Shown here: positions 52,855-62,416 of the stretch, in pieces
Position numbering within the stretch: position 1 is the stretch's first letter
Layout of the letters: every line of letters starts with the position of its first letter
NCBI GenBank assembly: GCA_963682135.1
Contig: OY821645.1
Location: 2,848,001-2,912,000, forward strand
Direction: 5' to 3'
Length of the DNA stretch: 64,000 bases
From: Methanothrix sp.
GTDB taxonomy: Archaea > Halobacteriota > Methanosarcinia > Methanotrichales > Methanotrichaceae
The notes under the pieces: model-generated
The model's input: the letters and a program-made list of their open reading frames with translations, nothing else
What the model was told of the DNA's origin: nothing
Databases searched by the model: none
Position numbers and translations under genes: made by a program

Positions 52855-53028
52855 CAGCATTTGCAGAATGAGTGCTTGGGCAGCCCAAAGGCCGGTAGCG
52901 GGAGATATCGCCCGCTTTCAGCCTCGGCTCAGGATCGACGGGGTGCAGATCATTCCGGCAGGAGGGCTCGCCGGGCAGAGGTGCCAGGACATCTTCCTTT
53001 TGCAGGTCGTATTCCTTGGCGATCTCTT
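52855..53028 (-). pseudogene. Fused remnant: Fe-S gene internal fragment (52855-52988) joined to a DUF433 fragment (52983-53028)
   Basis: CAGCCCAAAGGCCGGTAGCGG matches 60892 and 62079; GCCAGGACATCTTC.TTTTGCAGGTC.TATTCCTTG.CGATCTCTT matches 57360. Confidence 0.85.
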
Positions 53029-53168
53029 GATAATGTTAATATAATTTTGATAATCACTCCGTTAACCGAGCTTTGTGATTAATTAATATATGCACACAAA
53101 AATTTTTAAATTGGCAAAATTTAAATTCAAAGAAGTTCTAATAGAATTAGAGGCATAAAGGAGGAAAT

Positions 53169-53384
53169 ATGACAAATGAGACTTTAGAGAAGGCAAAGAC
53201 TGAGATCGAGAAGAAGCTCTCTTATGCAAAGGCCGATGCAGAGAAAGGATTTGCCGATGTAAAGGCTGAAGTGGAGAAGGCGAAAGCTGAGGTAGGCAAG
53301 AGGATGGCCCATGCAAAAGCTGATGTGGATAAGGCGAGAGCTGATGCAAAAGCTGAAGAAAGAACTAAGCAATCGCAAAAATGA
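53169..53384 (+). CDS. Small Ala/Lys/Glu-rich helical repeat protein (LEA-like composition)
   Basis: GGAGG RBS; AKA(D/E)(V/A)(E/D)K repeats. Confidence 0.7.
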   Translation: MTNETLEKAKTEIEKKLSYAKADAEKGFADVKAEVEKAKAEVGKRMAHAKADVDKARADAKAEERTKQSQK

Positions 53385-53699
53385 ATCCGGTAGGAATGGA
53401 TGAGAAGAAATGAATCGGTCAAGGACCCAAATAACTTATTCTCATCTATTCCGATTTTTTGATGCAGTAAAATGAGCAAACCGTGGATGAGAGTGAAATC
53501 GCTTAGCAAAGAATGGCATTATTGACGTGCTGGGTGGCAATTATTAAAAATGTATGCAGTCACTCGACAGCAAATTTATTATCTCTTTTGCTTCCGGCCC
53601 TACTTCGGTCGCCGGGCGTGCGCACGCAGGCGGGCCCGGGAGCGGCAATGCCCGTGCCCAAGGGCGCTTTGCTCACTGCGGGGTTTTTTATGCCATTGC

Positions 53700-54131
53700 G
53701 TGTCTCATGTTTTATGCGAGGGGTTCTATTCCCAGGTAATCATAATATCCGCGCTTGAAGGATTCAAACTCTTTTATGGTCTCATAGGCTTTGTCGTACA
53801 TAAAGGGCGTTTCATCTGCGTAAAGGATCTTGCCCTTCAAGACCTGCATGCGCAAAGGAAGGGGAAGCTGCTGGAAGATCTAATGTCATAGACATCATCA
53901 AAGATCTGATAAGACTTTGAGGCGGAATTCAGGGGCATCGGCATCATCGTAGTATACACAGATATCAATGTCCGAATCCTCCTTCATCCTGCCGACTGAG
54001 GATGAGCCGTAGAGGATGATGAATCTGACTTTGTCGCCACAGAGCGATTTAATTTTCTGGACGGCTCGATCAATTTTCGCATGCATTACCATTGGTTCTC
54101 CTGGGCTCATTGGCTGGTTATCCGCGTTCAA
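53700..54131 (-). pseudogene. Minimal nucleotidyltransferase (MNT antitoxin-type), frameshifted
   Basis: IILYGSS..G....DSDIDICV, then in shifted frames IFQQLPLPLRMQVLKGKILY...YETIKEFESFKRGYYDYLG. Confidence 0.8.
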
Positions 54132-54213
54132 AGGGGAAAAGCTTTTCTGAGAAGTGCATTGGCCAGGTAAAGTTTTAATCTTTAGTGAGATGCTCTCATG
54201 TTGGTGAGCCCAA

Positions 54214-60597: not shown

Positions 60598-61035
60598 CTA
60601 CCACACCTTCAGATCGATCCCCTCGATCCTCACCATCGCCCCTTCTGAGTGCACCACAACTCCCGAGTGCACCTTTTGCATCATGGAGTAGCTCCGGCAG
60701 AAATCGCACTGTCTCCCCCACCTCCGGCCTCCTGCCCCGGCTCACCGTCCCATCGAAGGCGGCCTACCCGTGCAGATGCCGATGTCCCCCTGGCGCTGGC
60801 AGGCCATGCAGCAGATGCACCGGCCCCACCAGGTGCACGGTGACGATTCCCCTGTCATTCTTGAGCACTTTTGCAAAATGAGTGATTGGGCAGCCCAAAG
60901 GCCGGTAGCGGAAGACATCGTCCTCCTTGTGGCGCGCCTCTGGATTAAAAGGATGCAGATCTTCCCGGCAGGATGGCTCGCCGGGCAGCTGTGCCAGGGC
61001 AAAGTCGGCCCGCAGGCCGTCCAGCACACCGATGA
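60598..61035 (-). pseudogene. Pseudo-copy 1 of the 3' segment of the Fe-S protein gene
   Basis: Aligns to 61790-62223 from IGVLDG to the stop; several frameshifts. Confidence 0.92.
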
Positions 61036-61163
61036 AATCCCAATCAGAAAAGGACCATTCTTGCCAAATTTATCCACTACCGCCAAGCTGAGCAGAAGAG
61101 AATCCGGTCATGAAACCGAATCAAAAGATAACTGTTAAATCCCATCGAGTAGTAGAATAAGTC

Positions 61164-61415
61164 ATGTTCTCGGAATATATCGCGGCGGCTTTGAGGCGGG
61201 CGAAGTACGAATCCCTGGAGAATGGCTCTTACATGGCCACTGTGGAAGGTCTTCGTGGCGTGATAGCCACCGGTGAGACTATTGAAAAATGCCGGGAAGA
61301 TCTAATCGAAGTTATTGAGGAATGGATTGCCATTCGGTTGCAGAGAGGCTTTGCCATTCCGTCCCTTGAGGGTCATGCAATAAGCGTCTCCCAGGAGCCG
61401 ATGGCCATTGTGTAG
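61164..61415 (+). CDS. hicB: HicB-family antitoxin (short form)
   Basis: YMATVEGLRGVIATGETIEKCREDL.EVIEEWI. Confidence 0.88.
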   Translation: MFSEYIAAALRRAKYESLENGSYMATVEGLRGVIATGETIEKCREDLIEVIEEWIAIRLQRGFAIPSLEGHAISVSQEPMAIV

Positions 61416-61629
61416 AATAATTCCCGTTCCTTATCGCGTCCTAATCAAGAAGCTGAAGAAGCTGGGATTAGAGGGACCACACCATGGCAGCAAGCACCCT
61501 TACATGGTCATTGGCGACACAGTTATCATCCTACCAAATCCGCATCAAGGCGAGGACGTAGATGTAAGTCTCATTAAGACCATTTTAAGAGATGCCGGTA
61601 TCTCCCGCGAGGAATGGATTTCAGCATAA
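61408..61629 (+). CDS. hicA: HicA-family toxin
   Basis: LIKKLKKLG..G...GSKH.YM, LPNPH..DV...L.K.IL..AGISREEW. Confidence 0.88.
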   Translation: MCRIIPVPYRVLIKKLKKLGLEGPHHGSKHPYMVIGDTVIILPNPHQGEDVDVSLIKTILRDAGISREEWISA

Positions 61630-61789
61630 CATGCTCGCCTCGCTCAAGGAGGGGGCCCGGGAGGGGATTATACTGGGCTTTGGCGCGGTTTCTCGTGGCT
61701 CCTGATCATTCTGGAATACAAGTAAAAGACTTATGGTCGCATGCGGGGCGAGCCTAAAAGCAGTGAAGCTGATTGCTTTGAAATTACTC

Positions 61790-62416
61790 TTACCAAACCT
61801 TCAGATCTATCCCCTCGATCCTCACCATCGCCCCTTCTGAGTGCACCACCACTCCGGAGTGCACCTTTTGCATCATGCAGTGCTCCGGCAAAAAGCGCAC
61901 CGTCTCGCCCACCTCCGGCCTCCTGCCCCTGCTGACAGTCCCTTCGAAGGCTGCCACCAGGCAGATGCCGATGTCCTCGGGCGCTGGCAGGCCATGCAGC
62001 AGGTGCACCGGCCCCACCAGGTGCACGGTAATGATCCCCTGTTTGTTCTTGAGCACTTTGGCAAAATGAGTGATTGGACAGCCCAAAGGCCGGTAGCGGA
62101 AGATCTCCCCCTCTTTAGGCCGCGCCTCAGGATTGAAGGGATGCAGGTCCTCCCGGCAGGATGGCTCGCCACCCAGCGGGGCAAGCGCGAAATCAGCCCG
62201 CAAGCCGTCCAGAACGCCGATGATTTCCTCCGTCTTCTCTGAGCAGACAAAGAGCTTGGCGATCTCCTCAGCACGCCCTTTGAATCTCTCCTGCTTGAGC
62301 ACGGGGCAGCGCTCCAGCCCGGCCACGTCCACCAGCTTGGCGGCAAACTCCCGGCAACTGGAAAGGCCGCACTCCCCGCAGTTGTATCCCGGCAAGAGCT
62401 TCTCGATCTGCTGCAT
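61790..62416 (-). CDS. (Fe-S)-binding protein (N-terminal FeS domain, Cys-rich C-terminal domain)
   Basis: LLPGYNCGECG..SC..FA...[33 protein letters not shown]. Confidence 0.9.
   Translation of the reverse strand: MQQIEKLLPGYNCGECGLSSCREFAAKLVDVAGLERCPVLKQERFKGRAEEIAKLFVCSEKTEEIIGVLDGLRADFALAPLGGEPSCREDLHPFNPEARPKEGEIFRYRPLGCPITHFAKVLKNKQGIITVHLVGPVHLLHGLPAPEDIGICLVAAFEGTVSRGRRPEVGETVRFLPEHCMMQKVHSGVVVHSEGAMVRIEGIDLKVW

Follow-up and report, generated by a model that had tools for sequence, protein, structure and literature searches.

We analysed a stretch of 64,000 nucleotides (nt) from Methanothrix sp. (contig OY821645.1 of assembly GCA_963682135.1, positions 2,848,001 to 2,912,000), referred to hereafter as the window. 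It contains an operon that is conserved in Methanotrichaceae and encodes an ABC-type ATPase, a G3E-family GTPase and an iron-sulfur (Fe-S) protein. Directly 3' of the last of these genes lies an array of 9 kb in which toxin-antitoxin and other cargo genes are separated by defective copies of the Fe-S gene's own 3' end. We propose, with moderate confidence, that this array is the recombinase-less remnant of an old insertion/displacement hot spot, later remodelled by repeat-driven recombination, and we remain agnostic about the enzyme that first acted there. The features of the operon, the array and its older right flank are the following (aa, amino acids; ORF, open reading frame; a prime marks a remnant or a displaced copy):

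63120..63905, minus strand: ABC-type ATPase, first gene of the operon (PF00005, E 1.6e-14)
62425..63123, minus strand: CobW/HypB/UreG-family (G3E) GTPase (PF02492, E 3.7e-11)
61790..62416, minus strand: intact Fe-S protein gene c1, 208 aa, last gene of the operon
61091..61746, plus strand: hicBA module (hicB 61164-61415, hicA 61408-61629) with a conserved promoter-side region
60599..61035, minus strand: pseudo-copy c2, Fe-S codons 65-208, 87.2% identical to c1 over 438 columns (blastn)
57767..60577, plus strand: HEAT-repeat protein HEAT936, 936 aa (PF13646, PF02985)
56941..57523, minus strand: DUF433 (57296-57523) and DUF5615/PIN-like (56941-57333) genes, a putative toxin-antitoxin pair
56456..56890, minus strand: pseudo-copy c3, Fe-S codons ~61-208, 86.9% identical to c1 over 435 columns (blastn)
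54214..56409, plus strand: HEAT-repeat protein HEAT731, 731 aa (PF13646)
53685..54154, minus strand: pseudogene of MNT, a nucleotidyltransferase antitoxin, frameshifted and with HepT deleted
53169..53384, plus strand: 71-aa low-complexity helical ORF, a candidate gene with no family above threshold
52860..53028, minus strand: DUF433 remnant (52976-53028) fused to pseudo-copy c4 (52860-52988), Fe-S codons ~78-122
52531-52854, plus strand: orf107, older right flank
52217-52489, minus strand: Amphi-Trp protein, older right flank (Pfam)
50267-52147, minus strand: pentapeptide-repeat protein, older right flank (Pfam)

Read from the Fe-S gene, the order is hicA/hicB; c2; HEAT936, DUF433 and DUF5615; c3; HEAT731, MNT' and the 71-aa ORF; and finally DUF433'::c4. 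Based on a repeat search and a MAFFT alignment of the four sequences, the repeated part corresponds to the last ~435 nt of c1 (62223-61791), and c1 to c4 all lie on the minus strand in direct orientation. Both c2 and c3 start at about codon 65 and are broken by indels, and c4 is 83% identical to c1 over 113 nt. The length and identity of the repeats exclude a chance origin. A preliminary description of this DNA had placed repeats of the Fe-S 3' end here and had listed the cargo between them; the repeat coordinates agree with ours within 1-5 nt, and the cargo list was borne out by Pfam. The pseudo-copies probably have no coding function and would serve as ~435 nt of portable homology for reshuffling of the island.

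The locus was compared with its relatives by searching genome contigs for the Fe-S protein. The best 80 of 121 confirmed stretches represent 79 distinct loci (L numbers below), mostly from metagenome-assembled genomes of Methanothrix/Methanotrichaceae, with some other Methanosarcinales and three records labelled as bacterial or of mixed origin. Each species is represented by one genome and many contigs are short, so that 10 of the 79 loci have less than 500 nt after the Fe-S gene. The GTPase and Fe-S pair is kept in 79/79 loci, and the ABC ATPase lies upstream of the GTPase in 77/79 (tblastn, E<=1e-5), the short contigs L042 and L068 being without it. The GTPase, which is 69-99% identical at the amino-acid level across loci, gives weak HypB/UreG matches under the cut-off. 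The comparison also bears on mis-assembly, which had been named as a possible refutation of the array. This explanation was rejected, because ~13% divergence separates the copies and assemblies of other species contain three of the same junctions: DUF5615 to c3 in L008, c4 to orf107 in L001 (86.9% over 406 nt) and Fe-S to hicA (and on to hicB) in L003. The repeats are real and old.

Within the window's clade, the pseudo-copies are of common origin. At codon ~178, the sequence GAGC[T]ACT[C]C, which combines a +1 insertion and an adjacent substitution, is present in c2 (60677-60695) and c3 (56534-56552) of the window and also in the second copies (c2) of L003, L008 and L015, with a variant in L006 c2, and it is absent from 10/10 intact genes aligned alongside. 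The exact frameshift motif was found in 3 of the 79 loci and at the two window sites, in every case inside a pseudo-copy. The shared +1 frameshift therefore points to one ancestral pseudo-copy, or to conversion to it, and not to separately displaced functional ends. The earlier comparison of the copies with displaced 3' ends is thus not supported for the very copies that carry this mark. A maximum-likelihood tree of the 3' parts was built from 62 rows (loci L001-L050, L063, L075 and L077, with fragments of at least 200 nt; the remaining loci and nine short fragments were left out). In this tree, c2 and c3 are sisters (95/90) and c1 groups with L003 c2 (98/93), while L006 c2 and L015 c2 are paired next to their own clade and L025 c2 and L028 c2 fall within theirs. 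Sliding-window identities are mosaic, with c1 resembling L003 c2 in codons ~61-100, which indicates gene conversion.

Two units of the array, A (c2, HEAT936, DUF433, DUF5615) and B (c3, HEAT731, and so on to DUF433'), have the same gene order. Unit B ends in a microhomology deletion, DUF433'::Fe-S', in which ~500 nt were lost: the DUF433 remnant at 52976-53028 is 91% identical to 57353-57405 and is joined to c4 at the microhomology CCTGGC. HEAT731 and HEAT936 are ~70% identical in nucleotides (58% in amino acids overall and 72% in the C-terminal domain) and are not sisters in the family tree. Therefore, either the duplication is old and the repeats were later homogenised, or one HEAT allele has been replaced. 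The stop codon of c2 adjoins the 3' end of HEAT936, and the intact Fe-S genes of L001, L008, L009 and L010 likewise adjoin the HEAT genes of their own loci.

The Fe-S gene encodes a 208-aa PF04060 protein, not a polymorphic toxin, and the fragments are frameshifted copies of the same domain. In c1, an N-terminal Fe-S cluster motif, with the PF04060 match confined to residues 8-39 (Pfam), is followed by a linker of variable sequence (codons ~26-64), after which codons 65-208 form a conserved C-terminal domain. Entropy was analysed in the 38 of 80 Fe-S genes that have exactly 208 codons. Amino-acid entropy is maximal at codons 56-62, and third-position entropy is lowered at codons 176-187 and 201-207, stretches with Met and Trp codons, and not at codons 60-67. 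A constraint at the DNA level on the boundary at codons 60-65 was rejected, since third-position entropy is not reduced there. Fragments start at codons ~60-65 in three junction types that differ in their upstream DNA, namely window c2, window c3 with L008 c3, and L025/L028 c2. Other starts range from upstream of the gene (L003 and L008; GTPase codon 4 in L042) to codon 180. The start at codons ~60-65 coincides with the onset of nucleotide conservation at the boundary of linker and domain, and the pseudo-copies may extend slightly further into an unrecognisable variable linker.

Extra Fe-S fragments downstream of the intact gene are present in 13 of the 79 loci (13/69 with at least 500 nt downstream and 10/42 with at least 5 kb): L001, L003, L006, L007, L008 (two), L015, L025, L028, L031, L034, L050, L055 and L063. 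HEAT, HicAB, MNT(-HepT) or DUF433(-DUF5615) modules occur in 16/79 loci in varying order. L008 reads Fe-S, HEAT, MNT, hicAB, full-length Fe-S', further sequence, DUF433-DUF5615, Fe-S', further sequence and Amphi-Trp, whereas L003 has Fe-S, hicAB, full-length Fe-S', a HEAT remnant and MNT-HepT. The order in L015 is Fe-S, hicAB, Fe-S', Amphi-Trp, pentapeptide and orf106, and that in L001 is Fe-S, HEAT, MNT', hicB, Fe-S' and orf107. The sequence just 3' of the Fe-S stop is of many unrelated types among the loci, and the downstream DNA of the relatives is neither invariant nor lacking in pseudo-copies, either of which would have refuted the preliminary description. None of the 79 loci has an array as large as that of the window, and 32 of the 42 loci with at least 5 kb of flank are fragment-free. 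The divergence of modules between species is roughly equal to that of the flanks.

Fe-S fragments arose independently in at least six other lineages. The fragments of L007, L025/L028, L031, L034, L050, L055 and L063 are free of the frameshift where the site is covered, and the intact gene of the same lineage ranks first as the relative of those of L007, L025/L028, L031, L034 and L063 and second for L050 c2. A fragment lies between cargo and older flank in the window (c4 next to orf107), L015, L031, L034, L055 and L063. Likewise, the fragments of independent origin all have inserted cargo on one side and flank on the other; this cargo comprises, among others, a P-type ATPase (L031), dockerin proteins (L055) and, in other loci, small ORFs. 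In L055, c2 is 97% identical to the intact gene of L056 and 94% identical to the intact gene of L055 itself; being closer to the gene of the sister species, it is therefore an old displaced end, and the current end is the newcomer. The spacer upstream of c1 in L003 is of the L009 type and that upstream of c2 is of the L008 type, so that the c1 region has been replaced by another allele.

Two further relatives bear on how the gene end turns over. Inside the Fe-S gene, the two ends of the L042 contig (3332 nt) share 24 identical nt, which closes the contig on itself around a unit of Fe-S, DUF433, HicAB-like, RHH-PIN and a GTPase truncated at codon 4. The contig represents either a circular molecule or a tandem duplication extending over the GTPase. 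Across more than 6 kb of the operon, L011 and L013 share 95% identity; from 4-5 nt past the Fe-S stop (~10630) they are unrelated, and here L011 has a recombinase remnant and L013 has RAMA-domain and TnpB-like genes. This break indicates turnover that is very recent and located precisely at the gene end. In L077, the Fe-S tblastn match at 8030-8654 falls into two overlapping pieces, of which the 5' piece has only 64% identity; this split suggests a frameshift or a sequencing error.

The cargo is, to judge from its families, selfish or defensive: hicBA, DUF433/DUF5615, MNT-HepT and the HEAT proteins. The hicBA and DUF433/DUF5615 genes are adjacent toxin-antitoxin pairs by Pfam family, and putative as such (HicB/UPF0150, PF21748, E 1.3e-25; HicA, PF07927, E 1.3e-7; DUF433, PF04255, E 4.4e-22; DUF5615, PF18480, E 2.5e-19). 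The hicBA module is 88-94% identical in L001, L003, L008, L009, L010 and L015, although its position differs in L008; ~75 nt upstream of hicB are conserved before the sequences diverge. The DUF433-DUF5615 pair is kept in L008 together with its junction to c3 (85.4% over 854 nt). The truncated MNT ORF (53898-54131) matches PF18765, PF01909 and MntA. Complete MNT-HepT pairs are present in relatives, and the homology to L003 and L010 stops at 53685. The 71-aa ORF had a tblastn match in the window only when the 79 loci were searched. The cargo is not co-oriented, since the HEAT genes and hicBA lie on the plus strand and DUF433/DUF5615, MNT and the repeats on the minus strand. Cargo in relatives also includes MNT-HepT, FitA-PIN, MazE, a type I restriction system (L077) and an HNH-helicase pair (L063). 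In L077, the type I restriction-modification system and three HicB-like genes lie downstream of the Fe-S gene.

The two HEAT proteins belong to a family with 44 matches of 538-936 aa and highly variable repeat number. HEAT936 itself has 12 repeats of 108 nt followed by a helical C-terminal domain of ~390 aa. Among the matches listed, source names are HEAT or hypothetical, and the organisms named are Methanothrix with the exception of one Methanosarcina record. In some relatives, the last part of the helical C-terminal region is replaced by TIR (P0029, P0037) or PNP-type domains (P0034, P0036, P0038, P0040). Swappable effector C-termini are typical of immune sensors. The AlphaFold model of the HEAT C-terminal domain is all helical (pLDDT 80); it gave no fold match in the PDB at E<=0.001 and no usable match in the ESM Atlas. 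Judging from sequence, "defence-like" would be a fair label for these proteins. HEAT936 and HEAT731 are each divergently oriented from a toxin-antitoxin operon (DUF433/DUF5615 or MNT), with which they could form a three-gene system.

No integrase, transposase or reverse transcriptase was found with Pfam in the window, either among the 16 ORFs at 49.9-63.9 kb or among the 52 ORFs at 1-50.3 kb (68 in all). The array had been called integrase-free, which holds for the window and does not extend to its relatives, where a recombinase or its remnant is present in 10/79 loci by blastn, plus L044 by tblastn. L017 (3928-4815) encodes an intact tyrosine recombinase of 295 aa (PF00589, E 6.9e-29) that begins ~100 nt past the Fe-S stop on the same strand, and L036 has a frameshifted recombinase in the same place. 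A tblastn search with the L017 protein matched 7/79 loci, namely L017, L048, L036, L018, remnants in L029 and L040, and L044, where the gene is 38% identical and lies ~780 nt from the Fe-S gene. A blastn search with spacer and gene together gave the 10/79 loci, adding L011, L012, L031 and L033. The recombinase gene is frequently truncated from its 3' side, leaving remnants in L011, L012, L029, L031, L033 and L040. By eye, the same spacer follows the Fe-S gene in L034 and L041, partly in L002 and L077, and also L003 c2; ~20 nt after the c3 stop of the window resemble the Fe-S-to-recombinase spacer of L017 and L002.

The recombinase family comprises 578 homologues that the sources name XerC/XerD-like, and the organism names among the matches listed are Methanotrichaceae. 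Plasmid and phage integrases are at most 34% identical to the L017-type recombinase and are generic. Other mobility genes in the relatives are a DDE transposase (L005), a transposase fragment (L021) and a TnpB-like ORF (L013). Integrase or transposase domains were found in 0/193 ORFs of the first 19 loci, those with extra fragments or the window's cargo modules; the recombinase was first met in 71 ORFs of 11 further loci. No match to it was found in the window by tblastn or blastn, and no remnant beyond ~20 nt. A direct repeat derived from the Fe-S gene was absent from the available 3-10 kb of L011, L017, L029, L033, L036, L040 and L044. Self-searches of these recombinase-bearing loci gave only chance matches of 10-13 nt and hence no sign of an att core.

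The preliminary description had also likened the array to an integron in manner. Neither an attC-like element nor a conserved boundary motif was found in the window, where the 9 weak inverted-repeat pairs at 49.8-63.2 kb include none at a cassette border. A plasmid or virus origin of the cargo was likewise rejected, since positions 53000-60990 had no blastn match in the plasmid and phage collections. Octamer-repeat hairpin elements with CGCAGAGN, CACAAAGN or CGCGAAGN arms were noticed in L003 (6545-6638), L005 (9822-9931), L077 (7850-7959) and L008 (13770-13824). They occupy a spacer of 100-383 nt between GTPase and Fe-S genes in relatives, a spacer that is almost nil in the window, and one of them stands at the border of hicB and Fe-S' in L008. 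These elements are possibly similar to miniature inverted-repeat transposable elements. They were rejected as a general cassette boundary, the window having one half-match (7389-7412).

The mechanism that we favour has three steps. Based on the anatomy of several lineages, DNA that carried its own Fe-S 3' end would have been joined upstream of part of the resident end, so that the old gene end stayed behind as a fragment, with the cargo on one side and the older flank on the other. Either an integrative element or recombination that was anchored in the conserved operon and had an illegitimate far end may have produced this join. The shared derived characters and junctions then show that one ancient pseudo-copy was copied and homogenised within the island of the window's clade. 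Gene conversion and unequal homologous recombination among the direct repeats derived from the Fe-S gene would have brought this about and would have duplicated the unit [Fe-S' - HEAT - DUF433 - DUF5615]. The ~435-nt repeats would thus drive unequal crossing-over, duplication, loss and reshuffling. In a third step, for which the sequence gives proof, microhomology deletions trimmed both genes and repeats. The preliminary description had seen here a landing pad that accumulates and swaps toxin-antitoxin and defence-like cassettes. The fragments in 13/79 loci and the reordering of modules in 16/79 speak for this; the small recurring set of cargo, with its flank-like divergence, fits an old island that rearranges and loses genes better than ongoing capture.

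Several points weigh against the remnant of an old hot spot as we describe it. The event that founded a fragment is itself not observed. Three junction types start within codons ~60-65, a pattern that random illegitimate joins do not predict and that hints at a specific site, and an Xer-like recombinase lies 3' of the gene in at least 10 relatives, so that a site-specific origin is plausible. Module divergence tracks that of the flanks, and lateral exchange of cassettes between lineages is therefore not demonstrated. Additionally, divergence is far greater between the HEAT genes (~70% identity in nucleotides) than between the repeats (87%) or in the DUF433 remnant (91%). For this to stem from one recent tandem duplication, conversion of the repeats or diversifying selection on the HEAT genes would be needed.

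The site-specific origin can be stated as serial integration with tandem accretion, in the style of e14 in icd, and we regard it as possible, if somewhat doubtful. Xer-like elements would use the Fe-S gene as attB, each carrying replacement codons ~62-208 and pushing the prior end downstream; the recombinase would later have been lost, and the window would hold remnants like those of cis-mobilizable elements (CIMEs). Such a history would explain why relatives have the recombinase gene or its 5' remnant in the same orientation ~100 nt beyond the Fe-S stop, in loci that span clades with Fe-S proteins only 67-78% identical to that of the window. It would also explain the layout of L031 and L034 (Fe-S, recombinase spacer or remnant, cargo, Fe-S fragment), the first ~20-35 nt of the recombinase spacer retained by window c3 and L003 c2, and the three junction types at codons ~60-65, and the order of the array is compatible with newest-first accretion. 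However, the window has neither recombinase nor a remnant longer than ~20 nt, the 19 loci with fragments or cargo have no integrase or transposase domain in their 193 ORFs, and the recombinase-bearing loci lack the expected Fe-S-derived direct repeat in the 3-10 kb available. The scatter of fragment starts, from upstream of the gene to codon 180, and third-position conservation that is not raised at codons 60-67 also count against a fixed site, and the inactivating frameshift common to c2 and c3 is unexpected from independent displacement without conversion. Since the tree of 3' parts tracks overall relatedness and not the presence of the recombinase, the adjacency of the two genes may simply be inherited. 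A bolder version, in which the end of the Fe-S gene and the Xer-like recombinase together constitute a resident platform for gene capture, comparable in archaea to an integron, with newest-first stacking near codons 60-65 and the window as its fossil without recombinase, seems to us quite improbable.

Recombination could also act actively and without any recombinase, circles of an Fe-S 3' segment with its cargo excising and re-entering genomes by single crossover. A repeat precedes each cargo block, boundaries are conserved while the neighbouring cargo varies, and the cargo is enriched in toxin-antitoxin and defence-like genes, all of which this proposal would accommodate, as it would the self-closing L042 contig, the likeness of c1 to L003 c2 in codons ~61-100 and the loss of similarity between L011 and L013 at 4-5 nt past the stop. 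We nevertheless consider it unlikely: the repertoire is small and recurrent and diverges like the flanks, giving no sign of import from distant donors; the array region is unmatched in the plasmid or phage collections; the pseudo-copies come from one ancestor; no circles were observed; and the window's array is the largest among the loci compared, with 32/42 of the longer flanks free of fragments. That the array is a one-off ancient tandem duplication, or an artefact of assembly, with no continuing process is very improbable. The common gene order of units A and B and the sisterhood of c2 and c3 are what it would predict, yet fragments arose independently in at least six other lineages, module order varies between species, divergence among the copies is ~13% and other assemblies contain the same junctions.

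The array can be compared with several known systems. e14 is an integrative element that inserts in a protein gene, icd, and supplies a replacement 3' end. As there, the gene remains intact with a displaced 3' pseudo-copy at the far end, and in relatives a tyrosine recombinase adjoins the gene end; unlike there, the window has no recombinase, no common att core was found, the starts vary and recombinase-bearing relatives show no far-end repeat in the 3-10 kb available. Integrons have intI and attC hairpins, and chromosomal integrons are rich in toxin-antitoxin genes. Here, too, small cargo units rich in toxin-antitoxin genes are ordered beside a fixed point, but there is no intI, attC hairpins are absent, the separators are gene fragments of 435 nt, genes lie on both strands and no sign of cassette excision was seen. 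The CIMEs of Streptococcus at the 3' end of fda show tandem accretion and integrase-less derivatives, and their att copies are short and identical. The likeness lies in tandem units parted by copies of a gene 3' end, some without a recombinase of their own, whereas the repeats of the present array are long, diverged, frameshifted and variable in extent.

Rhs proteins are said to undergo "C-terminal displacement", reportedly an observation of Jackson et al. from 2009. In the effector-immunity arrays of the Vibrio cholerae type VI secretion system (T6SS), sequential displacement is proposed to proceed by homology-facilitated illegitimate recombination, and the authors, in the part of the paper drawn on here, likewise compare such arrays with integrons (Kirchberger et al. 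2017, PMC5361080). As far as that account goes, T6SS/Rhs arrays resemble ours in that incoming DNA is anchored by a conserved upstream segment and the old 3' part is pushed downstream, so that orphaned 3' pieces accumulate in a string with no integrase involved (PMC5361080). What is displaced there are alternative toxin tips or immunity genes of a polymorphic toxin locus. Our array instead contains defunct copies of a single gene end of housekeeping type, its cargo genes are unrelated, and one pseudo-copy is the source of most copies in the clade. For hot spots that lack mobile elements, turnover by recombination in the core genes on their flanks has been proposed in the relevant part of a survey of bacterial genomes (Oliveira, Touchon, Rocha 2017, PMC5635113). 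As in the hot spots described there, a conserved core gene borders the variable block, integrases and transposases are missing from the window, close relatives differ in content and breakpoints fall at the end of the core gene. These hot spots are bacterial, and partial copies of the flanking gene inside the hot spot are not described in that part of the survey (PMC5635113); in our case, only the left flank is family-wide and some relatives possess a recombinase. The locus does not so far demonstrate a novel way of capturing genes and is best described as a variant of the core-gene-flanked hot spot or displacement array in a little-studied archaeal group.

Outside the array, an Rfam scan of the window gave rRNA and tRNA only. 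An rRNA operon (16S, tRNA-Ala, 23S, 5S) lies at 30979-35905 on the plus strand and a tRNA-Gly(CCC) at 48469-48541 on the minus strand, and neither adjoins the array. At 8660-14317 on the minus strand, a 1885-aa TPR protein contains ~20-30 tandem repeats of 204/102 nt that are unusually homogeneous, with 86-97% DNA identity. Two minus-strand ORFs match partial profiles, 5866-6393 that of NTP_transferase (positions 1-176 of 245, with a fuller ORF at 1705-2478) and 7643-8212 that of GDP-mannose dehydratase (117-254 of 332, with a fuller ORF at 731-1744). These may be further gene fragments that originated from duplication.

Methanothrix performs much of the conversion of acetate to methane in digesters and wetlands. 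In the literature on toxin-antitoxin systems and genomic islands of Methanothrix, and on mobile elements and the pangenome of Methanothrix soehngenii, we found no description of mobile DNA or defence islands at this locus, which provides a concrete hot spot that is family-wide. Because shared frameshifts and junctions act as markers, the gene-end fragments allow the history of the locus to be reconstructed. Additionally, the locus raises candidates for study in a Methanothrix-type HEAT family with swappable TIR, PNP or helical C-termini, whose members are possible defence sensors, and in an Xer-like recombinase tied to one chromosomal site. The end of this conserved operon is a natural site at which to seek strain-level variation and might be a tolerated insertion site for genetic work.

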